From the UHGV virus genome UHGV-1366603: a stretch of DNA of 64,000 nucleotides; one strand, written 5' to 3'. This document shows, piece by piece, positions 12,366-63,507 of the stretch (position 1 is the stretch's first letter; each line of letters opens with the position of its first letter). The DNA comes from a virus. The notes beneath the pieces were generated by a model. The model was not told the origin of the DNA. It worked only from the letters and a program-made list of their open reading frames with translations, and searched no databases. A program made the translations under genes and the position numbers.

Positions 12366-12369
12366 CAAC

Positions 12370-12956: not shown

Positions 12957-12978
12957 GTAATAATCTTTTTTAGAGTGC

Positions 12979-43385: not shown

Positions 43386-43448
43386 TTTTTACAATTAGGT
43401 GTAGATTTATGTCTCCCCTAGAACAAAATCTAAATCGGAGAAACAATT

Positions 43449-43859
43449 ATGCGTGAACATATCCTCGATCTTAGTGTTTCTGTAGAAGAACTTGTCAATC
43501 AACTTGGCGGCACGGGTCATGGTCTTCATTCAAAGACGAACAGTATAAGCCATCTCCTCGACCCAGAGTACGAACGAAAACTCCACATGATCGCAACCGT
43601 TCGTAACAAAGCCATGCACGAGAATATTCTCCCTACCAACATTCAAGCCTTTGAACAAGCCGTAGCAGATACAAAAGTTTATTTGCTTGACCTCTGTTTG
43701 CGCCAAGAAAACCCTAGCCAGTCGGAACCCAAAGAGCCGGGTAAAAGAAAGCTTGGGTGGTCTGAAATGAATAAGAAGCAAAGAATCTATTACGGTATCG
43801 GTATTGCTATCGGCTGTGTCGCTATTGGTATTTTCGGTATAACAGGACCTAAAAGATGA
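43449..43859 (+). CDS. hypothetical protein with C-terminal TM anchor (136 aa)
   Basis: C-terminal hydrophobic segment IYYGIGIAIGCVAIGIFGI. Confidence 0.55.
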   Translation: MREHILDLSVSVEELVNQLGGTGHGLHSKTNSISHLLDPEYERKLHMIATVRNKAMHENILPTNIQAFEQAVADTKVYLLDLCLRQENPSQSEPKEPGKRKLGWSEMNKKQRIYYGIGIAIGCVAIGIFGITGPKR

Positions 43860-44401
43860 AACTCGTAAACATGACGGACGAGGTTTCTAAGTTTATTGTT
43901 TTCTTAGAAAACCAAAATGTAAAGCCGGGTGAGAACATTGACGAATGGATGCTTAGACTACACAGCACGATAGGTAAAGTGTGTGGGTCAATCACCTCAA
44001 TCGACAGTTTAGGTCTGGCCAGAAACATTGGGGTAGCCTTTTGGGATATTGCTGCTTTTGTCTACGTTACTAATAAAGGAAACTTACACCCGTTCTTAAG
44101 CTCTCTGGTAAGGATGAATGGGGTTCGTAAATGGAGCAACGACCCTATCGTGATACAGGGAAGTAAATTAGTTAACGCGGCAGTACGAACTATTGCTCTT
44201 GGGCAATGCCGTACGGGAAAATACACGGACAAATGTGAGATAGAACTCACGACGTTAACTTATCGCCTGGCGTCTGTTGCCAGAACCAACGGCTTAGTCG
44301 TAGACCGCGTTATCAAAAACGGTCGCGAGACGTGGGTTAAGGAACAAAACAAAGGCGATTTTCTCTCTTATCTTGAATTACACAAAATGATTAAAGGATA
44401 A
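43856..44401 (+). CDS. hypothetical protein (181 aa)
   Basis: ORF track; start overlaps the upstream stop. Confidence 0.55.
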   Translation: MKLVNMTDEVSKFIVFLENQNVKPGENIDEWMLRLHSTIGKVCGSITSIDSLGLARNIGVAFWDIAAFVYVTNKGNLHPFLSSLVRMNGVRKWSNDPIVIQGSKLVNAAVRTIALGQCRTGKYTDKCEIELTTLTYRLASVARTNGLVVDRVIKNGRETWVKEQNKGDFLSYLELHKMIKG

Positions 44402-44409: not shown

Positions 44410-44718
44410 ATGGAAAACTATTCGGGTTGGGCAATTTCGCAGTGCATTGGCTATTCTTTACGTTCTTTAGTGCGTACACTTTATAACAAAAACTCAGGTG
44501 AAGCTATTACACCACAGTTACTGGGCAAATTGGAAGTCGAAGTTAACCACAAATTAAAGCAGTTACTCGACAACCACGTAAGAACAATGCGTTGGGAGTT
44601 TTTGTTGCGTGGTAAGAAGCCGTCAATTACTGTTGTGGCAGAAGGCAGTGAAATTGTTCTCCAATCCAACGCAGACCTGTTTGAAATTTTAACTGAACTC
44701 GAAAAGGACAAAATCTGA
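44410..44718 (+). CDS. hypothetical protein (102 aa)
   Basis: ORF track. Confidence 0.5.
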
Positions 44719-45752
44719 TGAAACAGTATTTAGCGTTAATGCAAGACATTCTGGATAACGGCGTTGTCAAGAAAGACCGTACAGGCGTAGGGACACTTTC
44801 TGTATTTGGCCGTCAACTACGTTTTGACCTGAAAGAAGGTTTCCCATTAGTTACTACGAAAAAGGTTCACCTGAAAAGTATCATTCATGAACTGCTGTGG
44901 TTCTTAAACGGTGACACTAACGTGAAGTACCTGCAAGAGAATGGGGTAAGAATTTGGAACGAATGGAGTGATGAAGAGGGGAACTTAGGGCCAGTATATG
45001 GTAAACAATGGCGCGAATGGCGCGACTGTAAAGTTGTGGAATGTCACGATGTAGGACGTACACAACAACTAATGCAGCTCGGTTACAAGTATATTGGGAA
45101 CATAAAGGAAGACGGTACGACGTATTTGGTCTATGAAAAAGCACATGACCAGATCAGTAAAGTTATCCAACAACTTCGTGAAGACCCAGATTCTCGCCGC
45201 ATTATTGTTAGTGCCTGGAACGTAGCCGACCTGGACGACATGGCACTTAACCCATGCCACAACTATTTCCAATTCTACACTACAGAAATGACACTGCTTG
45301 AACGACTGGATTGGTACGAAGTAAACGAGCCGGAAAAATTTGCGAGCGCACCGCTTATTAATCACGAAGATATTGATGATGAAGAGCGGCTTCAAGAAAC
45401 TTTAGATCGTGAGGGCATTCCACGCCGTAAGCTTTCATGTTTTTACATGATGCGGAGCAACGATTACCTACTCGGCGCGCCATTTAACATCGCTTCCTAC
45501 GCTCTGTTAACCTATATGGTTGCACAGCAGTTGAACATGGTTCCAGACGAACTCGTTTACAGCGGCGTAGATGTTCATCTGTACTCTAACCATCTGGAGC
45601 AAGCAAAACTTCAGCTTACACGCGAACCATACCCGTTACCTAAACTGGTTATCAAACGTAAACCTGATTCTATCTTCGATTACAAATACGAAGACTTCGA
45701 ATTAGTCGGCTATCAAGCACATCCACATATTGCGGCCCCCGTCGCAGTATAA
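44718..45752 (+). CDS. thyA: thymidylate synthase (ThyA-family) with two insertions
   Basis: N-terminal ~100 aa close to enterobacterial ThyA ([45 protein letters not shown]); catalytic NPCH and [10 protein letters not shown] present; C-terminus ..[28 protein letters not shown]..; extra segments at ~45020-45125 and ~45300-45440. Confidence 0.85.
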
Positions 45753-47673: not shown

Positions 47674-47720
47674 ACCTACCTCCGAAAGGAGGTAGGTTAA
47701 CTTTCTTTTTTTCTTTTTTT
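47674..47720. terminator. bidirectional terminator (CCTACCTCC-GAAA-GGAGGTAGG, T-runs both sides)
   Basis: Between convergent genes 46835..47665 and 47719..48282. Confidence 0.6.
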
Positions 47721-48282
47721 AAGCGCCAGGAACAATCCCAGAAGAGATATACGTCAAACCGTCAAGTTCGGTAACTTTAATCAGTTTCGAAATATCCTTA
47801 CCGTCAGACGGCAGTTCAGTTAAGTACACTTCCAACTGACCTGTCCAAGCTAAAGATCTCCCGTTCATGATAATGATGGTTTTATCTTTGCTGTCTGGCG
47901 CAGCTGTTGGGTTCTCAACTTCGTCGTCCGTAATCTGTAAGTTATATTTCGTACGGAATAGTTCCAATACTTCAGAAACAGTAGCAGCGTTCACACCTGC
48001 GACAGAGACAACGAAATCACCTAACAGATGTTCCAAATCCAACCGACGATAAATAACGTCAATTTTACCAAACGTTTTCTGTTCAATAATTCCCTGGACG
48101 CTGAGTTGAGTATTTAATCGCGTAAATTGAGTTTCTGGTGTTTCTACTGCGGGGATATGTGCCGGTGTGCCGAAATTCAATTTATCGATTGTAATACCTT
48201 TCTCTACCAAACCTGGATTCTTTTTTACTAATAACTCATAAACCAGTTGTTTTCCTGATTTACCTAATAGCGTATTAGCCAT
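47719..48282 (-). CDS. hypothetical protein (187 aa), possibly virion-associated
   Basis: ORF track; first gene of the minus-strand block. Confidence 0.55.
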   Translation of the reverse strand: MANTLLGKSGKQLVYELLVKKNPGLVEKGITIDKLNFGTPAHIPAVETPETQFTRLNTQLSVQGIIEQKTFGKIDVIYRRLDLEHLLGDFVVSVAGVNAATVSEVLELFRTKYNLQITDDEVENPTAAPDSKDKTIIIMNGRSLAWTGQLEVYLTELPSDGKDISKLIKVTELDGLTYISSGIVPGA

Positions 48283-48298: not shown

Positions 48299-50500
48299 TT
48301 AACGTGCTTGCGGCAGGAAGATGTTCGCGATCTGGCGTGCTGGGATAACATCCAGTGCCGAGTTAATAAAACTACCCTGCGACCATGCAGATGCCCAGTT
48401 TTGTGCCCAGATGCTCGCATTAATCTTGGCACGCGCAATACCGTTAGTACGTTCGTACAACGTAGCACCACCTAAACACGCCATAAATTCACTGAATTTG
48501 TTATCATCATCCCACACACCTGTGTCAGTAACAATGGGCATGTACATAACGCGAGTCAAATCACGAATAGTAACAGAGATGTCGCAAGACAGTGGGACGG
48601 AATCACCTGGCCGCCAACCTAAACCACCCACACCGAACTGTAACGACATCGACGTTACCATTGCATTACGGAACGAGAAACGTCCTTGAGAGTAACACTC
48701 TAAGTAGAACGGGTGGGTAAAGGATTGTTTACCGGTTGCGAGCGGACACACTGCTGCAATCCAAAACGAAAGCGGAACTAACAAATCCTGGAAAATATCC
48801 AGGTCGTTACCCGACCAACAACGTAAAGGAATGGTTAAAGTAATGTCGTCTCCTGATGCGTCAGAACTATCCCAGACTTCTGGGAAGTCTATCACCGAGG
48901 AGTTGTACAACGACATTATCCCTGTCAAATGTAGGGTGTCTGCAACGCCTCGCATCGCTGACTTAATACCGGAAACTAAAGCATCGACCGCACTAAAACC
49001 GGTTTGTCCACCCGACAGGTTAACCTCCAACGAACGCGCTTTTGCTGTTGCGGAGTTTACCATCCCGGAAATCTCAGGTTCTTTCGTGGAGTTAGAGAAC
49101 GAACGCGAAACGGTGTCTTTACCGTCAATACGCCAAGTAACCCATTGTGAACCGTTCTTAATCTCTGACAGGACGTTATCGCCAACATCCGCAACCATGT
49201 CGGTAAACTCTTTAAAGAACGTTCCTACTTTGGATTCATCTTTACCTTTGTTCATCCAATCTTGGACTTGAACGATGTCTCCTTCGGTAAGGTCTTCTGG
49301 GTTCTTTTCATCTAACGTAGAGTTCAACTGCTTAGCTGCTGCCGCACGTTTCTCCATGGTCTGACGGGTTTTTTCCTGCTCAGATTGGATTTCTGCGGCT
49401 TGCTGTTGTAGTTCATTAGCGGTACCACCCACCACCAGGCTATTACTCATCTGTCCGATGAGCTGGTCTTCCTGACTGTCAATATCCTGTATCGGAGAAG
49501 CGTAACCACCCTTTTCACTTCTGGCAACTTTTTCCAAGTCGTATAGCGAGACTTCGAACTGTTCTGCTTTTAGACGTACGTTATCGCTGTAAGTAGCATT
49601 ATAGTAAAACGCACGTAAGCGACTAGCAAACAATTCTTCATCGTCACCGGATTCTACACGAATCGCATCGATAGTTTTAGCCTGATAGTTCGCCAAGGTC
49701 TGGTAACGGTTAATCATTCGGTAAATGTCAAACTCACCGTTCGCTTTCCAGACTTCGGGTAAGGATTTATACCACTCTTCACGATCTTTATGGTAACTAT
49801 TTTCTTTGCTTTCGGTATCGTAGCCCAACGCAAAAGTCCCTAACACCCCTGTAGGTACCAAACGACGGTAAATTAGCTGGGTATTCAGGATGTTTTGCAC
49901 CGCGCGCAAATACAGATGCATTGTGGGCTTAACGTAATAGTATCTTGACGTTTCTTTATTCAGCGCTGCCGAAAGAATCCTCGGTGTAATCAGAATCACC
50001 GCAAACGCTACAGTACCCACCGTCGCCCAAATAGCAGCCGCACCGATGTACGATGCCGCTGTTCGAATAATTCCTGGATAGTCACCTGTACGCGCAAGAT
50101 ACGCCAGGTTAGAATCGTACATGTTCGCAAAGAACGAAGCCATGCCCAGATACTTCGGTTTACCGAAACGGCAATGAACGTAAAATGAGTTCTGGCTGAT
50201 ACTTTCGTAGTAATACGTCCCTAAGCGATAAGACCCTGCGGCTGAGGAGTTATAAAGGGACTCGGTACCGCTCTTAGTCGCGTCGGGTTGTGCAAACGCG
50301 CCTGTTGAGGAAGGGTCTGCAAAAAGTGTAAACTGGGGCGGTGTGTTAATCGCTTTACTGCCACCAACTGTGGTGTCTTCAAACGACATCATACCACCGG
50401 AATAGCGGCGCAAGGCCAGGAAACGTTCATCTCGGCCATCGACTGCGCCATTAAATAGGTTTTTGACCCAGCTTGAGTCGTTAACTGTTCTAGCGTCCAC
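48299..50500 (-). CDS. large hypothetical virion-type protein (733 aa) with internal hydrophobic segment
   Basis: ORF track; hydrophobic stretch ..IGAAAIWATVGTVAFAVILI..; coiled-coil-like central region. Confidence 0.6.
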   Translation of the reverse strand: MDARTVNDSSWVKNLFNGAVDGRDERFLALRRYSGGMMSFEDTTVGGSKAINTPPQFTLFADPSSTGAFAQPDATKSGTESLYNSSAAGSYRLGTYYYESISQNSFYVHCRFGKPKYLGMASFFANMYDSNLAYLARTGDYPGIIRTAASYIGAAAIWATVGTVAFAVILITPRILSAALNKETSRYYYVKPTMHLYLRAVQNILNTQLIYRRLVPTGVLGTFALGYDTESKENSYHKDREEWYKSLPEVWKANGEFDIYRMINRYQTLANYQAKTIDAIRVESGDDEELFASRLRAFYYNATYSDNVRLKAEQFEVSLYDLEKVARSEKGGYASPIQDIDSQEDQLIGQMSNSLVVGGTANELQQQAAEIQSEQEKTRQTMEKRAAAAKQLNSTLDEKNPEDLTEGDIVQVQDWMNKGKDESKVGTFFKEFTDMVADVGDNVLSEIKNGSQWVTWRIDGKDTVSRSFSNSTKEPEISGMVNSATAKARSLEVNLSGGQTGFSAVDALVSGIKSAMRGVADTLHLTGIMSLYNSSVIDFPEVWDSSDASGDDITLTIPLRCWSGNDLDIFQDLLVPLSFWIAAVCPLATGKQSFTHPFYLECYSQGRFSFRNAMVTSMSLQFGVGGLGWRPGDSVPLSCDISVTIRDLTRVMYMPIVTDTGVWDDDNKFSEFMACLGGATLYERTNGIARAKINASIWAQNWASAWSQGSFINSALDVIPARQIANIFLPQAR

Positions 50501-50545: not shown

Positions 50546-53500
50546 TTAACCTGCACGTCTAACGTTAAGCTGTCGTGCTGGCTGTTCAACGGACATTTGT
50601 CGTGATGCTGAACCTGCTGGTGCCATAGGTTGAGCCGATGCGGTGTTTTGTACCGGTTGTGGACGTTGCTTAAGGATCGTGACAATCTCTTTGAGATAAC
50701 CCGCCGATTCTTTCGCAACAGCCAACTGCTGAACACTAATCGGATCGCCACTGCTAAGTGTAGGTCCGTTTTGTGCATCAGAAGTAACCGCAGGTGCCGG
50801 TTTACTCGTCGCTGCTGCGCGCTGCACAGCACCTTCTTTCACCTTCTCGACATCTTCTTCAGGCAACCCTTCATTTCTGGCTCCAGTTGCAACAGTCTCC
50901 CCAATCATAGAGGCGTCACCGCCTGCACTACTACCGCCAGGTGACGGTACTGCTGGACCACCACTGGTTGCAGCTTTGACGTTGTCCGCACCCATTGCAC
51001 CTTTCTCTGCTAACGCTTCATCACGACGCGCAGCATTGGACGCAGGCAAGTTATCCGTCGCTCCAGAAATTGATGGATCGTTAGCTGCCCCTGCTGCTAC
51101 CGCCGGAGAGGAGGCAACCGCAGGCGTTAGCCCTTTCACCATGTCTTTCGTTGAAGCTGGGTTAGCCGCAATTTCGTTTGTCGCCACAGCACCCATACGG
51201 CGGTTCAGTTCATTAATAACTTCACCAACAGTACGAATACGAACAATCTGCTTGCCGCGCATTTCGTAGAAGACCCCCTTATTACCACTAAGGATTTGAG
51301 GAGTAATGCCTTCTGCTTTGTCGGCTGGCATGTTCGGATTCTGCCGCCATGCATTAAGGAACTTCTTACCACCGCCTGGGCCCAAGAAGTGATACAGATA
51401 CGCAACAGCCGGAGGCGGTTCTACACCACCTAAGTCTTTCTGCGCCTGCATGATATTGTCACGAATAAACTGTACCCCGAGGATGGTATTTGCCCACGGG
51501 TCGTACTGGTTTACTTGCGGTATACCGTACCGACGAGAGTACCCTTTCATCATTCCAGACCACGTTTTGTCAATGAACTGGAACAACCCTGCTGCTGACG
51601 CACCTGGGTTCTTGACACCATATTTGAAATCAGATTCGGCTTTCGCCATCGCAATCGCGACCGCAGGCGGAACACCTAAGGTATTTGCGACATCCGCAAT
51701 CATCGCTTTAACGCCTTCTACGTTAGGTGACTTACCATCACCCAGTTTGCTGATTGGATACTTCTCAGCCAAGGTTTTGTAATCACCTTCTTTGACGTCC
51801 CCGAGTTTAATCCCGGATTGGCCCGTAGAGAACTTCGCGTAATTGCTAATACCCATCTCACCCACAACTTGAGACAGATCACCCGGTGTACCGTAAGACG
51901 ACCCACCGTTTGGCAAGTACCCATCCTTAGACGCTGTACCCCAATCAACAACACCTTTGAAACGATCTTTGGTGTCTTCGTCGGTTTGGTACATTCTCGT
52001 CGCACGATCGGCTTTCTGCCACTTCGCACGTTTACCTGCTGCGGGTGTAGACCGCAGGGTATCACGAACAGCCAGGTCAGGTTCTTTGGACAGTTCTTTC
52101 AGGTTGGCAAGTTCAGTAGCAACAGAACCTGCGTCGGTGTTTGCTTCTTCACCCAGTGGGTTGAACGGAATCTCCCACACGGACTGACGAATACCACCCT
52201 TCATGTTGTAAGCGCCACGAATCATCAACGCCAATTCGTACATGAACCCACCGGATACTTTCAGTTCGGTAGGGTCTGCTTGCGGAATGTAACGTTTCAG
52301 ACCAACGACGTAGGTCATATACGCCGGTAAGAAACGGTTGTAGAACCAGTTCTTACAACGCTCCTCTTTAGGACCACCTATCAGGTCAGGCGAGATAACC
52401 GCAATGGCTTCTTTCCAGTTGCCTTTATAGGTACAGTTCTTCACATCAATGTCTTTCAACACGTTCTTCTCTAACAGTGTGAAAAGATTACGCGTTGTTT
52501 GGTTGATAGTAACCGCACCGTAGGTTTTCCACCTGACCGATTCCAGGTCTTCCAAATCACTTTTCTTCGGTAAGGAATGCCAGTCAACTTGGATTTGAAC
52601 CTGTTCAGTTCCGTCTTCCCAACCTTCGACCTTCGCAACTTTCTCGTTACGTTCAGCATCTGCATTCGCCAGTACCTGACTGGTTTCAGCAACGGACGCA
52701 ACTTTGTGGCCTTCGACAGCATCACGCATACCTGAACGTTGTTTCCGTTTGTCGTCAGTACGCATGTTGATTGACCGCCACACACGTTCCTGTGCTTCGA
52801 CAACCTCTTCCCCTGACAAGAACTCTGCCGGAGTAAAGGTAACGAAATCCCACGCTTTAGAGAACCAACCCTGGTTAACTTTACGCGGGTCAGTCAATGA
52901 ACGGAATTCCGCAGAATCTTTACCCATCTTCATTTTGTTGTAGAGGGTAATCATATCCGCTTTCGACACTTTCTTCGGATCACCAACATCTGCCAAAGCG
53001 ATGTCGTTATCCATCGACTTCAGTGCTGAAATCCAGCGGAGGTAAATCGGTGCGAAACGTTGTAGCATAAACGCAGTAAATGCTAACATCTCACCACGTT
53101 CTTCCAAGTTTACACCGAACCCTTCTGCGAGTTTCTTCACGTCTTCGGAAGACAAGCCACGTAATTGTGCTTCACCCCCTTCGGTATACGAGACGTAAGG
53201 TTTCAAAGCGTCTTCTAAATAACGGGCTTTCATACCGTCTTCAGAAGACCACTGGTCGTAGTCACGGAAACCGTATTGTGCCAGACGCATATAGTCGAGG
53301 TACTGTGCTTTCACACGGGTAGCGCATTTATACGCCCAATAACCCAGACCAGCGGCAGTCGCACCGATCGCAATTGCAGGCCAACCCACCGCAGCCACTA
53401 CCGTAGATGCAGCCGAGGCTACCGCAGTCACTGCCGGTACCGCTAAACGTTGTACAGCAAACTTACCAACGTTCCACGCTGCTTTACCGAGGAACCCGGT

Positions 53501-56500
53501 AGGTTTAAAAATACCCCACTTCGCAACTTTGCCCAGTATCGAACCCACCGTACCTAAGATACTCACGATTGGTCCTACTAACGGTAAGTCTTTGAGGAAG
53601 TCCATCACCCCGCCTTTACGTCCTTTCTGCTCAGCGGTTTTCTTGGCTTTCTCTTCTTCCTTAGAACGTCTACGACGACGGAAGAATTGGAAGTAGTCAC
53701 GTTTTTCATCGTTGGCTGCCGGTTTGTTACGTTGTCCGAACTTACTGAACATCGTACGAATCAGGCCATCAGGTGCACCAGCACGTTCCGCAGAGTCACG
53801 CATGGTGTTAAACCAGGACATTTCCTGGAGGTTAACCATCCGGTTTAAACGTTCCAATAATGCTGAACCAACACTCTTCGCTTTCTGCTTACCTTTGTTG
53901 ATAACGCGTCCTGCGGTATCCGTTGCGGTTTCGAAATCCTCCTTCGCTGCGTTAAACACGCGTGTTGGAGAAACCTTACCACGAGCGTACAAGTGTTGAC
54001 GGTAAAACTCCGCAACGTCATCATCACGACCCGCTAAACGCGACTCCGCCCGATAACGTGTGGCAATATCGTAGCGTGGGTCACGGAAGCTATCTACTGT
54101 TTCACCAAAGCGCCCACGGAAACGGTCAAACCACCCTTTACCCGCAGCGCCCCAACGAGACAGTCTATCGCCAACGCCATGACGGAAACGTGAGAATCGG
54201 TCACGTTGTCTGCCTCGCCAATCCCGGAAATTCTGGAAGTAATCTTTAAATCCGTCGCGGAAATCCTTAACACGGTTAAGCATCCCTTTGATAGATTTCG
54301 AGCCAACGTTTTTCTCCAGTTGCTCCGTCCAGGATTCATCTTCAGGCTCACCGTCTAAACGACGGTTAAGGAGTTTATAGATACGAATCAGGATATGGTT
54401 GGTCTTACGGCCATTCGACCAAGAGAACATGCTGAAGCCACCGCCAGAACCACCTTCCTTACGATTCTGCCACCACCGGGTAAGCGGGTTGTCGGTCGCT
54501 AACTCTTTGAATTTCTCAAAGCCACGTTTTGCATTGTTCCACAAACGAGCAGGCATTCCGGTTACGCGAGAAATCATGCTTTGTAAACGTGTTTTCTCAC
54601 TCCCCTCAGGAATCTCATTAAGCCACTCACGCGCTTTCTCGAAGATAGACGCTGCTCTTGGCGAGATTAGACCAATCAGTTTCTTCGGTAAGTTAACAGC
54701 TTTGTTTACTGCTGTACCTGCTTTACCGGAGATATACTGGAACAGGGCCTGGAGTTTACCGCCTTTATAGAAGCGCAGTTTACCCGCAGCCGCTAAGTCT
54801 GCCGCTGCGAGAATCAAGTTCCCGGCTTCGTCAACAATATCACGACCCAGCTTAATGTCGTCTAACGAGCGGAGTTGTACCAGCTTGTTGGTTTTAGGGT
54901 CAGCCTGATAATACTCACCTGCCTCTAAACGGCTTCCTTGTAAAACAACATTGCCTTTCTCGTCGTAGATGTCCCGAACACCAAGAACACCTTTCCCGAA
55001 GGCGACCGCCGAATTCCAGCCTGTGGACAACGTACCAGTAACTAAACCTTTCAGTCGTTCAAAAACACCTGGACCGTCAGATGGCCCACCGGAGAATTTC
55101 CCACGAATAAAACTGCCCAGTGACTGTAAACGCCCTTTCCCTCTCAGGAACATGTTCTTCGCAAAACGACCCGCGCCCGTACCGGTGTCCCAAAGTACGC
55201 CCGCCCAACGACGGAACAGCCCACTTTCACCAAGCACGATGCGTTTACGCTTGCGTTTGTTACCGGTGCTACCTGCATCTTCAGAAGCGTCACCCTCGTC
55301 ACCGTCACGACCACCACCTAAGCTGGCCAGCAGGATACCTTCCTCATCCATGTTCTTAACATGTTTCAGAATTTCCTGCACGGTGTTGGATTCGGACTTA
55401 TTACGAATAGCATCAACGATTCTATCAAACTGTTGCTCTAACCCTGCGGTGGTATCAGGACGTTCGCTTAGCAGTTCAACAAAGTTGGTAGATTTTTCAC
55501 CGTAGAGGACAGCAGCAAGTTGTCGTGCCGACAGTCCACGGCCACCGCGACCGCCTTTACCTTTAACGGTGTCAATTGTCGACTCGTCACCGGTTACGGA
55601 GGCGTCTACCCCTAAACGACGTAAATAGTCACCTAGCGCAGAACCGTTTTTCAGTTTGCGCTGGATTTCTTGTTCACGCGTTAACGAACGACCGGAACGG
55701 GTTTTCCCCATGGCCAGGTCGTTATACAGCGTATACGGATCGTTAATGTCTTTATCTACATCAAACCGATCGTTCTTCGCATCGTACTTAAAGATACCTG
55801 CATCACGTAACGCATTCTCACCGTAGATAATTGAAGCTTCGTCTACCGTGTTTTGACGTGCACGAATTGTTGACTGAATGGCCGAAATCTTACCAGCGAT
55901 TTCGTTGCTAAGTTCGTGATGACCGCCTGTCAGTTCTGAAGACCGTGCTTCTAAGACCGCCTGAATCGCTTCTACCGCGTTTGCATTCATGTAACGATAC
56001 ATGTGCATCGGGTCTTTCAGCAGACTGCCTACGTCGAACGCCTTACCTTCAGACGCACGTGATTCGATATAGTCCGCCAGCGCTTGGCGAGTTTTCGAAT
56101 CCAGAGTTTTGTCTTTGTCGATAAAGTCAACGGTTTCGTTAATGTACTGCTGTAAACGCTTCCGCTGTTCATCGTTCGCAACCGCTTTACGGACACGGTT
56201 GCCGACAACTTTACGGTCAATCATCCCACGCGTGGTTAAATCGTACACCTGGTCGTGGTGTTCGCCGTACCCGCGACGAATAGATTTGTTAATCTCCGTC
56301 AGCAAAGTCGGGATGACTTCCGTGATGCTAAGATACGCTTTACGGTCGAACTTCGCAGCGGCGGATAACGCTTCTGCTGAACGTTCTTCTAAAGCTAATC
56401 CCTCACGACGCAGCGGTGTCACTAACCCCATCTCGTGCATTAAACGGAAGACGGTGGCCAGTGGGCCGTCTATCTCACCAGCAATCGCCGAGTTAGAGAT

Positions 56501-57682
56501 AGAAGATAAGTTACCGAACCCGTAGCGTGCCAACTGAAGCCGTTTCATGACTTCTGGGTTCTTTTCTAACTCACTGCGTGTCCAGTTCTGTAAACGTTCT
56601 ACCTGAGGTTGTAAGAACCGTTTTGCTAACCAACTACCGGCAAACCCTGCGACTTTACCTCGGGAATTCGTACGACGACGTTCTGGCGACAGTGTAGAAC
56701 TGTCTTCCATGCCGAAGTCGTCTTCCTGACTCATTGACAGAACTTGTTCTAATATCCCGCGTCCGTCGCTGAAGATATTCGAAATCTTTTTCTTCGCGTT
56801 CTCACGAATCTGATCAATAAAGTTATCCGCGTAACGCAAGGGGTTCATCCATTCGGCAGCTTTACGTTTTACGTTAGCCCAACGAACTTCAGAGAATTCC
56901 TCTTTTGCGTAGTCCGGCAACGCGGTGTTTTTAACAATCGCTTCAAGTGCCGGGGTGTTACGGCTAAACTCATCCTGTTTAAGTTTAGCAATATCTTGCA
57001 ACGCGAATAACGTACGGTATTGCAGCTCTAGCTGTTTACGCTGAACGTTAAGCATTACCCCGCGACTTAAACTGGTCGTCAGGTTAACGTCTTTCGCAAT
57101 ACCGATAACCGTCTGGAACAGCGCATCGGACTTCATGTCCTTGATGGTGTCACGAAGACGGTCTTCTACCATTCCTTCCTGAACTTCACGTTGTTGTTCA
57201 GGTGTTTGTGGCGTACCTGCAAAAACAGAGTCTAACTCACGATCCATTAACGCTTGTTTAGGATCGTAATTCCCGTAATCGTACTGGTCGCTTTTCGCCC
57301 ACTTGTCGATCTTACGGGTTACACTGTCAGGCAAATACCGTTTTAGGGTTGGGCCTAACTGACGAGCTTGTGCCTTCACCACACGGGAGGTCTTTTCAAT
57401 CTCGTCTTTCGTATGGGCCAGAATGTCTTGACCTGCGGCTTTGACGTTCTTATAACCTTCATAAGCGTCAGTCGCCGGTTTTGGCATTCCTTTTAAAATG
57501 ACCTGATCACGTTTATTTTCGGGCCAGATAGTCGACAACGCCGACTTACGGGCAGCACGAAATGTGTCCATGACCGGGTTACGCGATTGGTCTTGTTGAC
57601 GAGGGGGCTCATCAAAATCGTCCCAGTCGTCCATGTTATCAAGATCGATTTCATCGAAATCGTCTTTACCTTTTTTAGCCAT
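50546..57682 (-). CDS. giant virion-type protein (2378 aa) with C-terminal lytic transglycosylase (SLT) domain
   Basis: SLT motifs ..AMAKAESDFKYGVKNPGASAAGLFQFIDKTW.. and ..AYLYHFLGPGG.. (coding ~51290..51720); acidic N-terminus; Gly/Arg repeats; Ala/Pro-rich C-terminal tail. Confidence 0.8.
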   Translation of the reverse strand: MAKKGKDDFDEIDLDNMDDWDDFDEPPRQQDQSRNPVMDTFRAARKSALSTIWPENKRDQVILKGMPKPATDAYEGYKNVKAAGQDILAHTKDEIEKTSRVVKAQARQLGPTLKRYLPDSVTRKIDKWAKSDQYDYGNYDPKQALMDRELDSVFAGTPQTPEQQREVQEGMVEDRLRDTIKDMKSDALFQTVIGIAKDVNLTTSLSRGVMLNVQRKQLELQYRTLFALQDIAKLKQDEFSRNTPALEAIVKNTALPDYAKEEFSEVRWANVKRKAAEWMNPLRYADNFIDQIRENAKKKISNIFSDGRGILEQVLSMSQEDDFGMEDSSTLSPERRRTNSRGKVAGFAGSWLAKRFLQPQVERLQNWTRSELEKNPEVMKRLQLARYGFGNLSSISNSAIAGEIDGPLATVFRLMHEMGLVTPLRREGLALEERSAEALSAAAKFDRKAYLSITEVIPTLLTEINKSIRRGYGEHHDQVYDLTTRGMIDRKVVGNRVRKAVANDEQRKRLQQYINETVDFIDKDKTLDSKTRQALADYIESRASEGKAFDVGSLLKDPMHMYRYMNANAVEAIQAVLEARSSELTGGHHELSNEIAGKISAIQSTIRARQNTVDEASIIYGENALRDAGIFKYDAKNDRFDVDKDINDPYTLYNDLAMGKTRSGRSLTREQEIQRKLKNGSALGDYLRRLGVDASVTGDESTIDTVKGKGGRGGRGLSARQLAAVLYGEKSTNFVELLSERPDTTAGLEQQFDRIVDAIRNKSESNTVQEILKHVKNMDEEGILLASLGGGRDGDEGDASEDAGSTGNKRKRKRIVLGESGLFRRWAGVLWDTGTGAGRFAKNMFLRGKGRLQSLGSFIRGKFSGGPSDGPGVFERLKGLVTGTLSTGWNSAVAFGKGVLGVRDIYDEKGNVVLQGSRLEAGEYYQADPKTNKLVQLRSLDDIKLGRDIVDEAGNLILAAADLAAAGKLRFYKGGKLQALFQYISGKAGTAVNKAVNLPKKLIGLISPRAASIFEKAREWLNEIPEGSEKTRLQSMISRVTGMPARLWNNAKRGFEKFKELATDNPLTRWWQNRKEGGSGGGFSMFSWSNGRKTNHILIRIYKLLNRRLDGEPEDESWTEQLEKNVGSKSIKGMLNRVKDFRDGFKDYFQNFRDWRGRQRDRFSRFRHGVGDRLSRWGAAGKGWFDRFRGRFGETVDSFRDPRYDIATRYRAESRLAGRDDDVAEFYRQHLYARGKVSPTRVFNAAKEDFETATDTAGRVINKGKQKAKSVGSALLERLNRMVNLQEMSWFNTMRDSAERAGAPDGLIRTMFSKFGQRNKPAANDEKRDYFQFFRRRRRSKEEEKAKKTAEQKGRKGGVMDFLKDLPLVGPIVSILGTVGSILGKVAKWGIFKPTGFLGKAAWNVGKFAVQRLAVPAVTAVASAASTVVAAVGWPAIAIGATAAGLGYWAYKCATRVKAQYLDYMRLAQYGFRDYDQWSSEDGMKARYLEDALKPYVSYTEGGEAQLRGLSSEDVKKLAEGFGVNLEERGEMLAFTAFMLQRFAPIYLRWISALKSMDNDIALADVGDPKKVSKADMITLYNKMKMGKDSAEFRSLTDPRKVNQGWFSKAWDFVTFTPAEFLSGEEVVEAQERVWRSINMRTDDKRKQRSGMRDAVEGHKVASVAETSQVLANADAERNEKVAKVEGWEDGTEQVQIQVDWHSLPKKSDLEDLESVRWKTYGAVTINQTTRNLFTLLEKNVLKDIDVKNCTYKGNWKEAIAVISPDLIGGPKEERCKNWFYNRFLPAYMTYVVGLKRYIPQADPTELKVSGGFMYELALMIRGAYNMKGGIRQSVWEIPFNPLGEEANTDAGSVATELANLKELSKEPDLAVRDTLRSTPAAGKRAKWQKADRATRMYQTDEDTKDRFKGVVDWGTASKDGYLPNGGSSYGTPGDLSQVVGEMGISNYAKFSTGQSGIKLGDVKEGDYKTLAEKYPISKLGDGKSPNVEGVKAMIADVANTLGVPPAVAIAMAKAESDFKYGVKNPGASAAGLFQFIDKTWSGMMKGYSRRYGIPQVNQYDPWANTILGVQFIRDNIMQAQKDLGGVEPPPAVAYLYHFLGPGGGKKFLNAWRQNPNMPADKAEGITPQILSGNKGVFYEMRGKQIVRIRTVGEVINELNRRMGAVATNEIAANPASTKDMVKGLTPAVASSPAVAAGAANDPSISGATDNLPASNAARRDEALAEKGAMGADNVKAATSGGPAVPSPGGSSAGGDASMIGETVATGARNEGLPEEDVEKVKEGAVQRAAATSKPAPAVTSDAQNGPTLSSGDPISVQQLAVAKESAGYLKEIVTILKQRPQPVQNTASAQPMAPAGSASRQMSVEQPARQLNVRRAG

Positions 57683-57711
57683 AACGTTTAATCCGTATCA
57701 GGAGATTTAGC

Positions 57712-59337
57712 GTGAATAAACTTAATTGGGTTGACTTTTATCTGCTCAATGTAAACAAGTCTCTTGTGTCGCGATTACGACCCGTCACGACCACAGATAC
57801 TTTTCAAGGGTTGACAAAAAACTTTCACCCTGAAGGGTTATACTCCACGGAGATATTCGGTCTTACGGGAAGTGAAGCCCGAGACTCAACGTTTTCTTAC
57901 ATTGATATTAAATTAGATATCATTTCGCCGACGGTGTGTTTGGCGTTATTCCAACTAAAACAACTCTACGAAGAAATTTGTTCTGGAAAACGCTACGCAA
58001 CCTGGAGCGAAAAAGAAAAAGATTTTGAACCGGCTTTGCCTGGCGACGCTGGCGCAGATACCGGTTTTAACTTTTTCCTTAGTCACTACAACGACTTAAA
58101 ACCCGGACGTAACGAATCGTTACAACGTGACGAAACGGTGGATTTCTTCGAGAAGTTCCGTCCCGTGAGTCTTAGCCGCTATGTTCTCGTATTACCCGCA
58201 GGTTTACGTGATTTGGTGGTTAGACAAGACGGTAGGGAACAGGAAGAGGAAATCGGCGGGTTATATCGTCGTTTGATTTCTTTGGCCAGGGCGATTCCTG
58301 ACCGTGCCACACGGGTTGAATTAACGAACCCTGTGCGATGGAAACTCCAACAAACCTTTAACGAAATCTGGATGTACTTCTTTAACATCCAGGACGGTAA
58401 AGGGGGTTTCCAACGTCGTAAAGTGACGTCGCGTAAACTGATGAACGGGACACGTAACGTATTGTCCTCATTCTCCACAGGCTCTAAATGCATGGGGCGT
58501 GAGGATGCGATTCGACCAACTGACACCAAAATTGGTTTGTATCAGGGTCTGAAGGCGTTACTGCCCGTTGCGCAATACCAGATACGTGAACGTTACCTCG
58601 GTAACATTCGTGCTGGCGATGGCAACCTTTACGGCGTAAACACCAAAACGCTTAAACGCGAGTTCTTGGAAGTTGGGGGTCGAGTTTACGACACCTTTAC
58701 CACGGACGACGGTATCGAAACATTAATTAACCGAATGGAAGCTCGCGAGCTTCGTCATCAGCCGTTAATGATTAACGATACCCATTACGTCGCGTTAGTC
58801 TACCAAGACAACAAACATTTTAAGGTGTTCTACGATATCGATGAACTGCCTAAAACGTTTGACCGTAAAAACGTCCACGGAATGACCCTGGTAGAACTAC
58901 TCTACTTATCGGGTTACGATCTGTGGAACAACTATTTCGGTTTCGTTACACGTTATCCCGTCACCGGTCGAGGCTCGACGTACTCATCGACCATAAGATT
59001 GGAGACCACCACGTCATCTTTATACTTAAAAGAACTGGAAGATGACTGGGAGACTGAAAAGCCTCGCGGGGCAATCAGTTATCCTGACCGGTCGGTTCCA
59101 ACCTTTGTTGAGTCGATGGCACCGCACCCGTCACGACTGGGTGGCTTAGGGGGTGACTACGACGGTGACACCGGTTCACTTAACGCGCCTATGTCGGAAG
59201 AAGCGCTCGAGGAAAACCGTAACTGGGTACACTCGAAGAACTACTGGTTCGACTCTGACGGGAATTTCAAAATCAACCCCGTCAACAACGTGATTAAACG
59301 TGCGACGCAAGCGTTATTAAAGAATCCAAAAGGCTAA
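57712..59337 (+). CDS. multisubunit RNA polymerase beta-prime-like subunit, N-terminal fragment (split RNAP)
   Basis: GTG start with AGGAG 7 nt upstream. Motifs ..GLYSTEIFG.., ..IDIKLDIISPTV.., ..VLVLPAGLRDLV..GGLYRRLISL.., ..GGDYDGDTGSLNAP.. align with bacterial RpoC landmarks (ARIFGP, HIELASP, VLPVLPPDLRPLV / LYRRVIN, NADFDGD). No Zn-finger cysteines. Confidence 0.65.
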   Translation: MNKLNWVDFYLLNVNKSLVSRLRPVTTTDTFQGLTKNFHPEGLYSTEIFGLTGSEARDSTFSYIDIKLDIISPTVCLALFQLKQLYEEICSGKRYATWSEKEKDFEPALPGDAGADTGFNFFLSHYNDLKPGRNESLQRDETVDFFEKFRPVSLSRYVLVLPAGLRDLVVRQDGREQEEEIGGLYRRLISLARAIPDRATRVELTNPVRWKLQQTFNEIWMYFFNIQDGKGGFQRRKVTSRKLMNGTRNVLSSFSTGSKCMGREDAIRPTDTKIGLYQGLKALLPVAQYQIRERYLGNIRAGDGNLYGVNTKTLKREFLEVGGRVYDTFTTDDGIETLINRMEARELRHQPLMINDTHYVALVYQDNKHFKVFYDIDELPKTFDRKNVHGMTLVELLYLSGYDLWNNYFGFVTRYPVTGRGSTYSSTIRLETTTSSLYLKELEDDWETEKPRGAISYPDRSVPTFVESMAPHPSRLGGLGGDYDGDTGSLNAPMSEEALEENRNWVHSKNYWFDSDGNFKINPVNNVIKRATQALLKNPKG

Positions 59338-59340: not shown

Positions 59341-62300
59341 ATGCTGCTCATTAAACAGTTTAACCAACGCTTCTCTGTGCGTAAAACAGACGAGTTTGGT
59401 AATCCGAGGATTATCCCGCTCGAGAAGCTCCAGATACCACGAGGCTCCATACTGCACGTCGTGGATCTCGATCAGGTGGTCTTAGCGCCACCTGCTACGC
59501 TGGAAATCATCCAGCCGTTGGAAAAACCTGCACAAATTCGCCACCACTTTAAACTTCCCGAAGAAGGGATTAGTGGGCATCCACGTAACAAACCTGTGCA
59601 GGGGCAAGAACGTGCTATCTTTGCGTACCATCGCGCTAACCGTCCAATTCGTCGTCTGACTTCAGATGACCTGGTGCGTAAAGACTTAAAAGTTCTCCTT
59701 ATTGAGAACTACACACCGATGTTATCGCACTACTATTATCCAGACACTCAGTTAGCCTGGTACGATAGACTGCGTAATATCCAGCTGTTAATGACCAACC
59801 AGTTCAAATACGACACGCAAGAATACATGCGTCAGAACTATTTCGTGATTGAGCTGGGATCAACGTTACCGTCTTTCCAGAAGTTCCAAACGACGTATAA
59901 CGATCGCGTTAAAAGCAAGATTGAAAAGTTCCAGGACTTTAACCTGCTGTGGCTGTTGGAACTTTTCGCTTGGGCGTACGGTAAACAGTCCGATTCTCTG
60001 TTTGCGGGAATGGACTTAACGCAACTGTCTCGAATGAACTTCATCTTCACCCATAACGGCGGCTTTACGTCGATGAACATGGGTGTCGTGGAGAAGATGC
60101 GTAAATCGTCCGGTGGTCGTTTAAGTGACGACCAGATGGCCAGGATGTTCTATCGTACGTTAGTGCGTGTAATGACACAAGCACCGTCTAATGCGTACGA
60201 AGCTGAATTCCTGACACCGGAAGGTGATGAACGTATCTTTGTTAAAGACATCGAAGAAGAGACGGTTGACGTCGCTGACGATGGAGACGTTGTTAACGAC
60301 GCTGTGGTTGAATCGGATAACGCATTCGATGAAAAAGAAGACCTCGTTATTGAGGAACCGAAAGAAGACGTTAAGCCGACGACTATCGTTATCGAAAAAA
60401 CGATTGCTCACGATGACATTATCAAACAGGAAGCGCAGAAACTGGCTGAGGCGGGCCGCTTAAGCTCTAAAGCGTATCAGTTCCTGTCTGATTCGACTAA
60501 ACGTTTCGTTCAGTTACCGAACCCGTATAACCCGAAAGAGACTTACGGTGAAGCATTAACCATTCACGAAAAAGACATTGCCGTGAAAGCGGAACCGAAG
60601 AAAGTCCAGCGACTGGTTACGGATGAAGGTTGGGCAGAAAACGTCACCGACCAAATGGTGAAACAATACAACCAGACCATGATGAGTAAAGACGTACTGG
60701 CAGCTGTCGCCAGCTCGCAGCGTCTTGGTTTGGCTATTCACAACCACACGATCGAGAAAGAGATTTCCGTTACGGGAACTATCGAACACCACACCCTGCG
60801 TGTTCAACCGATTGGTGGTGAACCGACGACAGTGCGTTTCTCTATCCCTGGTCTAACCGAAGACGGTACCTGGGTAGCAAACGGTGTTGAATACACCATG
60901 CGTCGTCAGCGTGTAGACGTGCCGATTCGTAAGGTCGCCCCAGACACCGTAGCGTTAACGACCGCTTACGGTAAAAACTTCGTACGTCGCAGTGACAAAG
61001 TCGCAAACGACTACGGTCGCTGGTTAACGAACGCGATTATCACGCGTGCCGTAGACCCGACCAACACGGAGATCACTGACGCACGTCTCGCGAACGTTTT
61101 CGATCCTACTGAGAAACTTCCTCGTCAGTATACGGAGATTGCACGTCGTATCGCCAGCTTTAATGCAGGCGGGTATATGTGGAACTTCGATTATAAAGAA
61201 GCGGTTAACTTCTTTAATGACGAACAGCTTACTGACGCAAACAACGTTGAGATGTTGCCGGTTGCGAAACGTCCGCGTAGTGAAGTTATTGTGGTGATGG
61301 ATACCAAGTCCATGCTCTATACCGTTAAGGGTAAAGAGTGCACACCGCTGGGCACCATCTCTGAAGTGCTTGGTTTCAGTAACCAGAAAGCGCCAAGAGA
61401 GATGACCGAACTTTCACTGATGGGCAAATCGCTCTCACTGGGCTTCATCTTCTCGTTCTATTTAGGTCTGCAAGGGATGCTTAAGCATTTCGGCATTCAG
61501 TACGAAATCGTCCCTGTTGGCCAACGTGTAGATAAGAGCACGTACGATTCTATTATTCGTCTCCAGGACAGTAAGTTCCTGGTAACGTGTGATAACGATC
61601 AGCAACGAATGATTCTACACGGTCTGGATAAGTACCTGAAACACCTGGTAGCTTATACCGAGTCCGAAGTCGACCGCGAAGACATTTACCTGAACTTAAT
61701 ACGTGATGCAGATGGGCTAACTCCACGCTACATCAACGAGCTGAAACAAATGCGGGCCGCGTTTGTTGATGACATGCACGCACGTATCCTCAGGAAAATG
61801 GGTGAACCGGAAACCTTTATCGGGCTGTTGGAACGTTCTAACGAACTGTTACAAACCGACCACTCTTTGCCGGAGATTAACGGTGATGAGATGATGTTCT
61901 TAGGGAACCAACGTATTTCCTACCACATCTACACCGCGTTGGTCAGGGCGATGCGTAACTACAACAACGCACCGAACAGTAACCGTAAGTTCGAACTTAC
62001 TCAGGACATGATTTGGGGTGCCATTAACTCCGACCCGTCTGTTCTGTTAGCGCCGGGTGCTAACCCTATCCAGTCGATTAAAGAGAAAGACGTTATCACC
62101 ATGGGGGGCACGGGTGGCCGTAACCGTAAAACAATGGTTTATCACACGCGTGAGTTCCAACCGAGTGACCTGGGTATTGTATCCGGTAACACGGTGGATA
62201 ACGGTGACGTAGGTATTACTGCTTTCGCCACTAACAACCCACGTTTTGATACCGTTGACGGCACCACCTATAAACGGGATGAAAAGAAACTGAAGCCGAG

Positions 62301-63507
62301 TGACACTCTGTCATTTATTGACGGTCTCGTACCGGATACCCTGATGGATGACGCTAAACGTCAAAACTTCGTTGGGATTCAGTTAGGTTCTGCCACCAGT
62401 TGCAACGGCGCTACCACTACCCCTTATCGTACCGAACAGGAGAAATTTGTCGCTCACCGTACGTCGGTGAAACACGCACGCGTTATTGATAAAGCAGGTA
62501 AAATCACCGGTCTGTCTAAAGACCATATCGAAATTACGTACGAAGATGGAAGTAAAGAAGCCTTTCCTCTAGGGCGCTGGTTCGGCCCCCACGAAGGTAC
62601 CTTCTATCCGCACACCCTGGTGACTCGCTGGAAAGCCGGTGACAAACTCCCGGCCGGGGCAGTCATCACCTATAACGAGCAACACTTTGAACCCGATATC
62701 TACGACCCTACTCAGGTTTCCTGGAAAAACGGGGTGCTGGCTACCGTCGCTCTAATCGAAGCTGAAGAAGTAATCGAAGACTCCAATGCTATTTCTGAAC
62801 GGTTCGCGAAGAAAATGGTTGGGCAGGTTACTAAGCTGAAAGAAGTGGTGATTAACAGCAACCAGATGCTCCTGGAAATCGTTAACGAAGGGGAACACGT
62901 TGACGTCGACACAATCCTATGCACATTTACTGACGACCTTACGGGGGATATGAGTACCTTTAGTAAGGAAGCAGCACAAACGTTGCAAAGTTTAAGTTCG
63001 TACGCGCCTCGTGCTGGGGTTCGTGGTATCGTGGATAAAATCGAAGTCGTGTATCACGGTGAAACCGAAGACATGACGCCTTCACTGGCAGAACTGGTAC
63101 GTAAATACGATCGCATTCGTCGTAAAGCAGCATTGGCTGTTAATCGTGGCGATCCGGTATCAGGGAGTGTTAATGGGGATTACCGTGTAGAGGGTGTACC
63201 GTTAGCCTTTAACTCGCTTTGTGTTCGATTCTTTATTACGCACGAAGTTGAAATGGCCGCAGCGGATAAGATGGTTATTGCTAACCAGCTGAAAACCACT
63301 GTACAAGAAGTGATGTACGGGGAAAACAAAACAGAAGATGGCGACGACATTGACATTTTGTTCGGTCGTGATTCTGTCGACGCACGTATCGTAGGTTCTA
63401 TCCAACGAATCGGTACCGCAAATGCTGTGGGTGAACAAGCAGGGATTCTTATCGGTCGTATTCTCGACGGCGAGTCCGTGCCTGAGTTACCAGCGACACT
63501 TAAATAA
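59341..63507 (+). CDS. multisubunit RNA polymerase beta-like subunit, N-terminal fragment (putative)
   Basis: ..NPIQSIKEKDVITMGGTGGRNRK..FQPSDLGIVSGNTVDNGDVGIT..NNPRFDTVDGTTYKR.. parallels E. coli RpoB ..[60 protein letters not shown]..; the RpoB C-terminal catalytic region is absent. Confidence 0.55.
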   Translation: MLLIKQFNQRFSVRKTDEFGNPRIIPLEKLQIPRGSILHVVDLDQVVLAPPATLEIIQPLEKPAQIRHHFKLPEEGISGHPRNKPVQGQERAIFAYHRANRPIRRLTSDDLVRKDLKVLLIENYTPMLSHYYYPDTQLAWYDRLRNIQLLMTNQFKYDTQEYMRQNYFVIELGSTLPSFQKFQTTYNDRVKSKIEKFQDFNLLWLLELFAWAYGKQSDSLFAGMDLTQLSRMNFIFTHNGGFTSMNMGVVEKMRKSSGGRLSDDQMARMFYRTLVRVMTQAPSNAYEAEFLTPEGDERIFVKDIEEETVDVADDGDVVNDAVVESDNAFDEKEDLVIEEPKEDVKPTTIVIEKTIAHDDIIKQEAQKLAEAGRLSSKAYQFLSDSTKRFVQLPNPYNPKETYGEALTIHEKDIAVKAEPKKVQRLVTDEGWAENVTDQMVKQYNQTMMSKDVLAAVASSQRLGLAIHNHTIEKEISVTGTIEHHTLRVQPIGGEPTTVRFSIPGLTEDGTWVANGVEYTMRRQRVDVPIRKVAPDTVALTTAYGKNFVRRSDKVANDYGRWLTNAIITRAVDPTNTEITDARLANVFDPTEKLPRQYTEIARRIASFNAGGYMWNFDYKEAVNFFNDEQLTDANNVEMLPVAKRPRSEVIVVMDTKSMLYTVKGKECTPLGTISEVLGFSNQKAPREMTELSLMGKSLSLGFIFSFYLGLQGMLKHFGIQYEIVPVGQRVDKSTYDSIIRLQDSKFLVTCDNDQQRMILHGLDKYLKHLVAYTESEVDREDIYLNLIRDADGLTPRYINELKQMRAAFVDDMHARILRKMGEPETFIGLLERSNELLQTDHSLPEINGDEMMFLGNQRISYHIYTALVRAMRNYNNAPNSNRKFELTQDMIWGAINSDPSVLLAPGANPIQSIKEKDVITMGGTGGRNRKTMVYHTREFQPSDLGIVSGNTVDNGDVGITAFATNNPRFDTVDGTTYKRDEKKLKPSDTLSFIDGLVPDTLMDDAKRQNFVGIQLGSATSCNGATTTPYRTEQEKFVAHRTSVKHARVIDKAGKITGLSKDHIEITYEDGSKEAFPLGRWFGPHEGTFYPHTLVTRWKAGDKLPAGAVITYNEQHFEPDIYDPTQVSWKNGVLATVALIEAEEVIEDSNAISERFAKKMVGQVTKLKEVVINSNQMLLEIVNEGEHVDVDTILCTFTDDLTGDMSTFSKEAAQTLQSLSSYAPRAGVRGIVDKIEVVYHGETEDMTPSLAELVRKYDRIRRKAALAVNRGDPVSGSVNGDYRVEGVPLAFNSLCVRFFITHEVEMAAADKMVIANQLKTTVQEVMYGENKTEDGDDIDILFGRDSVDARIVGSIQRIGTANAVGEQAGILIGRILDGESVPELPATLK

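Follow-up and report, generated by a model that had tools for sequence, protein, structure and literature searches.

The window analysed here, a 64,000-nucleotide stretch of the virus genome UHGV-1366603, carries on its minus strand (positions 50546–57682) an open reading frame (ORF) of 2378 amino acids (aa) which, with a probability that we put at about 0.78, encodes a tail-internal tape-measure/ejection protein of a new SPN3US/Asesino-like phage among the phiKZ-like jumbo phages. Its homology to known phage proteins, the identities of its domains, the conservation of its catalytic residues and its overall architecture are observed here directly, and the location in the virion and tail and the enzyme activity have been demonstrated for its homologs. 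That the protein truly acts as a ruler of tail length is fairly likely. This reading would settle how the largest gene of the region is annotated, namely as coding for the tail tape-measure protein and virion lysin of a new SPN3US-like jumbo phage.

Family membership and the behaviour of the homologs

PHROG 3201 matches the whole protein (E = 0; profile positions 1–1024 and beyond), and tblastn found the equivalent gene covered to 100% in 61 jumbo-phage records, the best matches being those of Erwinia phage Asesino (61.7% identity) and Salmonella phage SPN3US (60.9%). BLASTP against the more distant phiKZ gp181 aligned aa 12–550 with gp181 residues 26–576 (E = 2e-16) and aa 1451–2211 with residues 1356–2105 (E = 7e-37). 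To this full-length collinear homology is added a conserved locus, with a divergently oriented gene for the β'-N part of the virion RNA polymerase (vRNAP) on one side and a gp182-like gene after the large ORF on the other, and orthology to SPN3US gp239 and phiKZ gp181 is almost certain from these comparisons. The protein is thus, judged by its alignments, a diverged member of the gp181/gp239 family that shows no departure from the described kind. In an alignment of the query with its 78 closest homologs (79 sequences), lengths range from 2242 to 2572 aa at identities down to about 25%; so narrow a range is what a ruler would be expected to show, and to that extent it is consistent with one.

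When 50,697 phage records were searched with the gene by megablast, only a 183-bp match of 74% identity came back, so the phage is not among the isolates of that collection; a metagenome-assembled Logan contig encodes a protein 99% identical to that of the window, with DNA that is 97% identical. Because there is no isolate with matching DNA and there is a near-identical metagenomic contig, we assign the window to an uncultured relative of the Seoulvirus/Erskinevirus group that is, on the present matches, known only from metagenome assemblies.

The best-studied close homolog, SPN3US gp239, is the largest protein of its virion at 259 kDa and is named the tail tape-measure protein by the Thomas laboratory (PMC5105663, PMC10052503, PMC5694885). 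By mass spectrometry, the tailless particles that one mutant makes held no detectable gp239, and in those from a second mutant it was depleted more than 10-fold, along with the proteins of sheath and tube (PMC5105663, PMC10052503). For phiKZ gp181, a muralytic activity of 60,000 U/mg is quoted for the lytic domain (Briers 2008, via PMC5380687). The initial annotation of the window, which was made from the letters alone, had proposed a virion-borne, cell-wall-degrading injection or tail protein, and as far as these homologs can speak for the present ORF that proposal is upheld: the muralytic and virion checks by which it could have been refuted have each turned out in its favour for a homolog. 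A tail-borne muralytic protein is very probable.

T7 gp16 bears an SLT domain and spans the envelope once it has been ejected, and it offers a different model, in which the protein encoded here would be an internal protein packaged in the head and ejected from it. The similarity to gp16 is that of a generic lysozyme-like fold only, the gene is co-oriented with that of a baseplate spacer protein, and the loss of gp239 from tailless SPN3US particles together with sheath and tube places that homolog in the tail, so that a head-packaged protein seems very improbable. The family is also named "tail fiber protein" in RefSeq and PHROG. Those labels are all that favours a fiber, and they clash with the SPN3US experimental papers, which speak of a tape-measure protein, and with the architecture found here, which has an enzymatic lytic domain and transmembrane (TM)-like segments and lacks a fiber-like fold or repeats; the fibers of phiKZ, moreover, are the gp131–135 paralogs. 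A fiber is hardly credible on these grounds.

Architecture, lytic domain and the tape-measure reading

The ORF was divided into the following parts (pLDDT is the per-residue confidence score of AlphaFold2, AF2).

50546–57682, minus strand: whole ORF, 2378 aa, ATG start, almost certain ortholog of SPN3US gp239 and phiKZ gp181 (PHROG 3201, tblastn, BLASTP)
57593–57682, minus strand: acidic N-terminus, aa 1–30, MAKKGKDDFDEIDLDNMDDWDDFDEPP, kept in the family consensus
53603–57580, minus strand: predicted mostly α-helical N-terminal region, aa ~35–1360, the candidate ruler part, which includes Gly/Arg patches and a small β-rich island at aa ~900–985
53522–53590, minus strand: hydrophobic TM-like segment 1, aa 1365–1387, DLPLVGPIVSILGTVGSILGKVA (Kyte-Doolittle maximum 1.8 in a 19-aa window)
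53342–53446, minus strand: hydrophobic TM-like segment 2, aa 1413–1447, Ala/Gly/Val-rich, of a length that fits one or two spans (Kyte-Doolittle maximum 1.84; position conserved among homologs)
52073–53335, minus strand: conserved all-α globular domain, aa ~1450–1870 (AF2 pLDDT mostly 80–92; inside the BLASTP block shared with phiKZ gp181)
51173–51715, minus strand: lytic transglycosylase domain (SLT/GH23, phiKZ gp144-like), aa ~1990–2170 (Pfam SLT and motifs)
51635–51637, minus strand: codon of the predicted catalytic Glu2016 (aligned to gp144 Glu115)
50549–51172, minus strand: Ala/Pro/Ser/Gly-rich C-terminal tail, aa 2171–2378, with a conserved helix-like end, QLAVAKESAGYLKEIVTILK (composition; family consensus)

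Pfam SLT (PF01464) matches aa 1998–2083 with 32.7 bits against a gathering score of 21.3 (E = 6e-8), and the lytic domain region holds the motifs AESDF (aa 2015), GLFQF (aa 2032) and AYLYHF (aa 2094), so the initial annotation was correct in placing an SLT motif near residue 2000 of a huge protein and in expecting a domain search to find it. It had called the domain C-terminal, which is true in that the domain lies late in the protein, but its position is sub-terminal, at 84–91% of the length, and not at the extreme end. The domain has a lysozyme-like α fold. Glu2016, Tyr2095 and His2098 align with Glu115, Tyr197 and His200 of the phiKZ endolysin gp144, three residues whose importance for gp144 activity has been shown by mutagenesis (PMC5406664). 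The catalytic Glu is present in 75 of the 79 family members (the other four bear a GH19 domain there instead), and E2016, S2017, the Q of GLFQF and the Y of AYLYHF are invariant or nearly so across the family. Like the lytic domain of phiKZ gp181, that of the present protein could be an enzybiotic candidate.

The lytic module varies in kind within the family. In some homologs it is swapped for a GH19 (chitinase/lysozyme-like) domain at the same relative position, and in others a VanY D,D-carboxypeptidase or M23 peptidase domain stands directly upstream of SLT. Because these swaps and additions occur at the same relative position, wall degradation can be seen as the conserved requirement, and what is selected appears to be wall degradation by way of a swappable module, not one particular enzyme. 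Near aa 700, some homologs have a Peptidase_S74 chaperone-like segment as well.

Upstream of the lytic domain the protein is predicted to be largely helical. An AF2 model of aa 1–1200 has 63% helix and 4% strand with a mean pLDDT of 58, and aa 350–660 resembles a folded helical domain; neither a β-helix nor a fiber fold is seen in these first 1200 aa of what is a low-confidence model. The acidic N-terminus that the initial annotation described is present and conserved in the family. The Ala/Pro-rich tail that it named is confirmed as well (20% Ala and 9% Pro in the last 208 aa), and close to the end of this tail the family consensus reads QLxVxxxxxxxLxxI. The annotation's "Gly/Arg repeats" stand only as short low-complexity patches rich in these residues (GKGGRGGRG at aa 708, spanning about 708–716, and RGRQRDRF...RFRGRF at aa 1156–1194), since self-BLAST of the protein found no true internal repeats. 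A hydrophobic segment occurs in every sampled homolog, even at about 21% identity. Where homologs are close or at mid-distance it lies at 55–62% of the length, and the most distant ones have it as far along as about 75%. The all-α domain at aa ~1450–1870 gave no convincing match in the PDB; Foldseek returned only a weak full-length similarity to enzymes of the Slt70 type (E = 4e-4, TM-score < 0.2). AF2 predicts a disordered linker at aa ~1867–1936.

From 2008 to 2017 gp181 was viewed as a central, needle-like spike under the baseplate that punctures the cell, and on that view the lytic domain of the present protein would sit at the tip of a spike, like that of T4 gp5. Reviews accordingly call gp181 a "needle-like cell-puncturing device, putative trimer" (PMC5380687), and the lytic domain alone has a marginal match to PHROG 196, "baseplate hub" (E = 6e-4). 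The 2026 cryo-electron microscopy atlas of phiKZ, however, gives the spike as gp164, the tip as gp163.1 and the hub as gp101, and its modelled baseplate does not include gp181 (PMC13250141); because spike, tip and hub are there assigned to other proteins, the older needle model of gp181 is superseded. The AF2 secondary structure of the present protein likewise contains no OB-fold and no triple-stranded β-helix (strand makes up 4% of aa 1–1200 and the C-terminal part is helical), and TM-like segments and a helical body in a 2378-aa protein are atypical of spikes. A spike is therefore quite improbable.

The architecture fits a tape-measure/ejection protein that may be analogous to T5 Pb2, and neither a tail fiber nor a spike. 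Two marks of the tape-measure class are found, namely the hydrophobic segments and a gene that adjoins the ortholog of gp182, the "spacer" of the central baseplate, which in phiKZ forms a ring between the tube initiator and the hub (PMC13250141). On the upstream side, where a tape-measure gene would have a tail-assembly chaperone pair with a programmed frameshift, the next gene is that of the divergent RNA polymerase subunit, no search for chaperones having been made elsewhere. The phiKZ tail is about 200 nm long, with a tube lumen about 68 Å wide (PMC13250141). At 1.5 Å per residue, an extended helix made of the 1364 aa before the hydrophobic segments would measure 205 nm. The nearness of this figure to the length of the phiKZ tail hints at a division of labour, in which the N-terminal part would serve as the ruler and the C-terminal ~1000 aa as an ejected effector module. 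A large protein that is missing from symmetrised maps and is encoded beside the gene of a hub-proximal ring is, in addition, what one might expect of a tape measure lying in the lumen.

Several points weigh against this reading. "Tape measure" in the SPN3US papers is an assignment, the ruler function being undemonstrated and no tail-length mutant having been reported. With about 0.09 nm of tail for each residue, the protein as a whole has roughly double the length that a canonical ruler needs. The AF2 model of the N-terminal part, from which its helical nature is read, is of low confidence (mean pLDDT 58, as above), and a Pfam scan of the protein (E ≤ 0.1) found SLT only and no classical tape-measure protein (TMP) family (PhageMin_Tail, TMP_2, Tape_meas_lam_C). 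In phiKZ gp181 the equivalent Gly/Ala-rich hydrophobic stretch is weak (Kyte-Doolittle maximum 1.2), and gp181 itself, a protein of ~250 kDa, is neither modelled nor mentioned in the 2026 phiKZ atlas (PMC13250141).

If the tape-measure reading is nonetheless correct, the gene would be co-transcribed with that of the gp182-like spacer ring of the central baseplate, and the hub/spacer complex would be the site within the tube at which the protein is assembled, its helical N-terminal part of about 1360 aa lying stretched out in the lumen of the tail tube as both length ruler and assembly scaffold. After contraction of the sheath and shedding of the spike (gp164 in phiKZ), the protein would exit first, its C-terminal end being expelled into the periplasm, where the gp144-like lytic domain (Glu2016/Tyr2095) could open the peptidoglycan locally by cutting glycan strands. 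The hydrophobic segments (aa 1365–1447) might then enter the inner membrane and help to form a conduit for the DNA and the co-ejected virion RNA polymerase, as has been proposed for T5 Pb2. In this scheme it is our inference that the protein lies in the lumen, that it exits first and that it inserts into the membrane.

The divergent junction and the surrounding genes

The features that flank the large ORF are as follows (RNAP, RNA polymerase; SD, Shine-Dalgarno).

57683–57711, between the two strands' starts: 29-nt divergent intergenic spacer with back-to-back SD sites, TCAGGAG (plus-strand RNAP gene) and GGA (minus-strand gene)
57712–59337, plus strand: vRNAP β'-N gene, 541 aa, GTG start, phiKZ gp180 ortholog (PHROG 2986, E = 1.6e-235; BLASTP to gp180, E = 1e-75)
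48299–50500, minus strand: downstream co-oriented gene, 733 aa, phiKZ gp182 ortholog (BLASTP, E = 9e-38 and 3e-20)
47719–48282, minus strand: third gene of the minus-strand cluster, 187 aa, virion structural protein family (PHROG 2935, E = 1.2e-33)
47674–47697, both strands: bidirectional terminator-like hairpin with a perfect 10-bp stem, 6 GC pairs and T-runs on both strands (σ70/terminator scan)

The separation of 29 bp between the start of the large gene and that of a β'-like gene, which the initial annotation had pointed out, is exact, and the identity of the neighbour is borne out by its BLASTP match to gp180 and by the GGDYDGD motif of its product. The junction has precisely this length in 7/7 members of the window, SPN3US and Asesino clades (the window, three metagenomic relatives, SPN3US, Asesino and Proteus phage 7). 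In ChrisDB and Caitlin 14 bp are annotated, from a TTG start inside the spacer that is apparently mis-called, and the homologous ATG gives 23–29 bp. Two blocks of the spacer, CTCCTGA and GGA, are invariant in an alignment of nine sequences; the first is the complement of the TCAGGAG SD site, which lies 7 nt before the GTG of the RNAP gene, and the second is likely the SD site of the large gene. The spacer, to go by this alignment, is essentially two back-to-back ribosome-binding sites.

A scan found no σ70-like promoter at the junction, and over 13 kb it returned 7 where 12 were expected. The earlier remark that 29 bp leave no room for conventional divergent promoters is to that extent sound, but the arrangement is no anomaly given a conserved junction and phage-encoded RNAPs. 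The phiKZ-like phages transcribe independently of host RNAP by means of their own virion and non-virion enzymes; phiKZ late promoters have only T(-3)ATG(+1) overlapping the start site and an undefined downstream sequence, and the middle promoters a weak AT-rich element at -24 (PMC7598289, PMC4666361). Since the phage RNAPs use such minimal promoters, the missing space for a σ70 promoter is to be expected and poses no paradox. The promoters of both genes probably lie, though this is unproven, within the opposite ORF or at its very edge, which would make the two 5' ends overlap; each gene would then be transcribed by phage RNAP from a minimal promoter embedded in or at the edge of its neighbour. 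Two facts speak against such promoters: TATG is absent within about 120 nt upstream of either start, except for a copy that overlaps the large gene's own ATG and is unconserved in Asesino or ChrisDB, and no promoter has been mapped in this phage group. A TTTACC at 57665–57670, which resembles the phiKZ middle motif, was dropped as a candidate, as it is not conserved in SPN3US or Asesino.

To look for embedded elements, we took 240 codon windows along the 2378-codon gene and asked in each how far six phages agree in their synonymous codons, relative to what is expected for every amino acid. A raw excess at the 5' end was in part an effect of amino acid composition, but a signal persisted once expectations were set residue by residue and control genes were added. 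The five most constrained of the 240 codon windows all start at codons 21–81 (and so cover 21–110), with a peak observed/expected ratio of 1.45 (z = 5.25, codon-window standard deviation 1.38), and three control genes show their excess no further than the first ~30 codons. Conserved nucleotide blocks in this part of the gene include AAGTCGGCGTTGTCGACTATCTGGCC (codons ~45–55) and an invariant CATAC about 270 nt into the ORF, which reads TATG on the RNAP-sense strand. The signal over codons 21–110 is, on this showing, no more than suggestive of embedded elements.

One could go further and see in the junction a special regulatory device and not incidental tight packing; an antisense overlap that is obligatory, for example, or a bidirectional promoter serving both genes would couple the synthesis of vRNAP to that of the tail protein. 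The identical 29-nt length in 7/7 relatives whose proteins are as little as 61% identical, the synonymous constraint over codons 21–110, which extends beyond the excess of the three controls, and the invariant CATAC would all agree with such a device. However, the two SD sites and their own spacers fully account for the intergenic spacer, the window has other short divergent junctions (such as one of 44 bp at 6661/6706), the same junction is 75 bp long in phiKZ, internal synonymous peaks of equal size are found elsewhere (for example at codons 781–850 of the 1388-aa RNAP gene), and the z values are inflated because the sequence pairs are phylogenetically non-independent. We consider a special device unlikely; the tight divergent junction requires no special explanation. 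As for the 1388-aa RNAP gene (59341–63507), its own strongest synonymous peak lies at ~61680–61890 (codons ~781–850, observed/expected ~1.39, z ~5.3), which suggests an overlapping functional element there, for instance an internal promoter or an RNA structure.

The most far-reaching combination of these ideas extends the tape-measure reading at both ends. In it the last ~1000 residues (TM hairpin, all-α domain and lytic domain) would be a cargo separate from the ruler and carried in the wide (~68 Å) lumen, which after ejection cuts the wall, inserts into the inner membrane and forms a trans-envelope conduit, and which might even seed the early-phage-infection vesicle, a structure derived from the inner membrane into which the DNA and the virion RNAP pass; the 29-nt junction and the constraint at codons 21–110 would, for their part, mark ORF-embedded promoters that link vRNAP and tail-protein expression. 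Taken jointly, these proposals are improbable.

The gene order around the large ORF is common to the window, SPN3US, phiKZ and their relatives, with two divergent virion-RNAP genes on one side and, on the other, a gene of 660–730 aa and a small virion protein gene. The counterpart of the small gene (the 187-aa third gene of the cluster) in L004, the 97%-identical metagenomic relative, matches Pfam DUF7941. The hairpin at 47674–47697 sits between convergent genes and closes the three-gene minus-strand cluster of tape-measure, spacer and virion protein genes. On the RNAP side, the β'-N protein of the window (541 aa, 57712–59337) extends through the catalytic GGDYDGD, and phiKZ gp180 (490 aa, positions 11787–13259 of locus L003) stops at the aligned "LGAD", after which comes the gene of the gp179 endonuclease; the two phage groups therefore differ in where the subunit is split or the insertion lies.

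Further away, the window and L004 differ at the thymidylate synthase gene. In L004 this gene contains a group I intron (22586–22818, minus strand; Rfam RF00028, 62.5 bits, E = 2.6e-13) that divides it into ORFs of 99 and 254 aa, and in the window the gene (44718–45752, 344 aa) is uninterrupted, the L004 intron mapping between positions 45454 and 45480. This is, by comparison of the two sequences, a presence/absence polymorphism of an intron between near-identical phages. Upstream of the same gene a small-ORF indel makes the window (43031–44398) about 640 bp longer than L004 (24185–24910). No tRNA genes and no Rfam families at gathering threshold were found across window positions 1–64000.

Comparison with known phage proteins

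The closest described relatives are SPN3US gp239 (YP_009153533, 2372 aa, the "tail fiber protein" of RefSeq) and its orthologs in Asesino, phiEaH2 and Proteus phage 7. The present protein (2378 aa) is collinear with these over the full length, at 61% identity and 100% coverage, and shares with them the positions of the TM-like segments and of the SLT domain, the gene neighbourhood and the 29-bp divergent junction; it differs in being only about 61% identical, and the gene has no megablast-level DNA match to any isolate. With phiKZ gp181 (NP_803747, 2237 aa, the structural peptidoglycan hydrolase of Briers et al. 2008) it shares the N-terminal block at aa 12–550 and the C-terminal block at aa 1451–2211, which includes the lytic domain, but identity is 22–24% and the middle ~900 aa cannot be aligned by BLASTP. 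The phiKZ locus is alike in having the vRNAP genes gp180 and gp178 divergent and gp182 downstream, and unlike in its 75-bp spacer and in the extra endonuclease gene, gp179, between the RNAP genes.

The lytic domain resembles the phiKZ endolysin gp144 (PDB 3BKH/3BKV; found also in the virion neck, 9XPS) in its catalytic fold and active-site residues. However, gp144 is a protein of 260 aa with an N-terminal peptidoglycan-binding domain, whereas here the domain is embedded at 84–91% of 2378 aa, and Glu178, a secondary-site residue of gp144, is Asp in the present protein and variable in the family.

T5 Pb2 and the lysin-bearing tape measures, such as the TMPs of phages phiIPLA35 and TM4, combine a long helical body, hydrophobic segments that insert into the membrane and a C-terminal wall-degrading module that is delivered from inside the tail. 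The protein described here may well work like them. It has no detectable sequence relationship to them, is about twice their size and belongs to a contractile-tailed phage, and its enzyme is a lytic transglycosylase and not an M23 peptidase or a muramidase.

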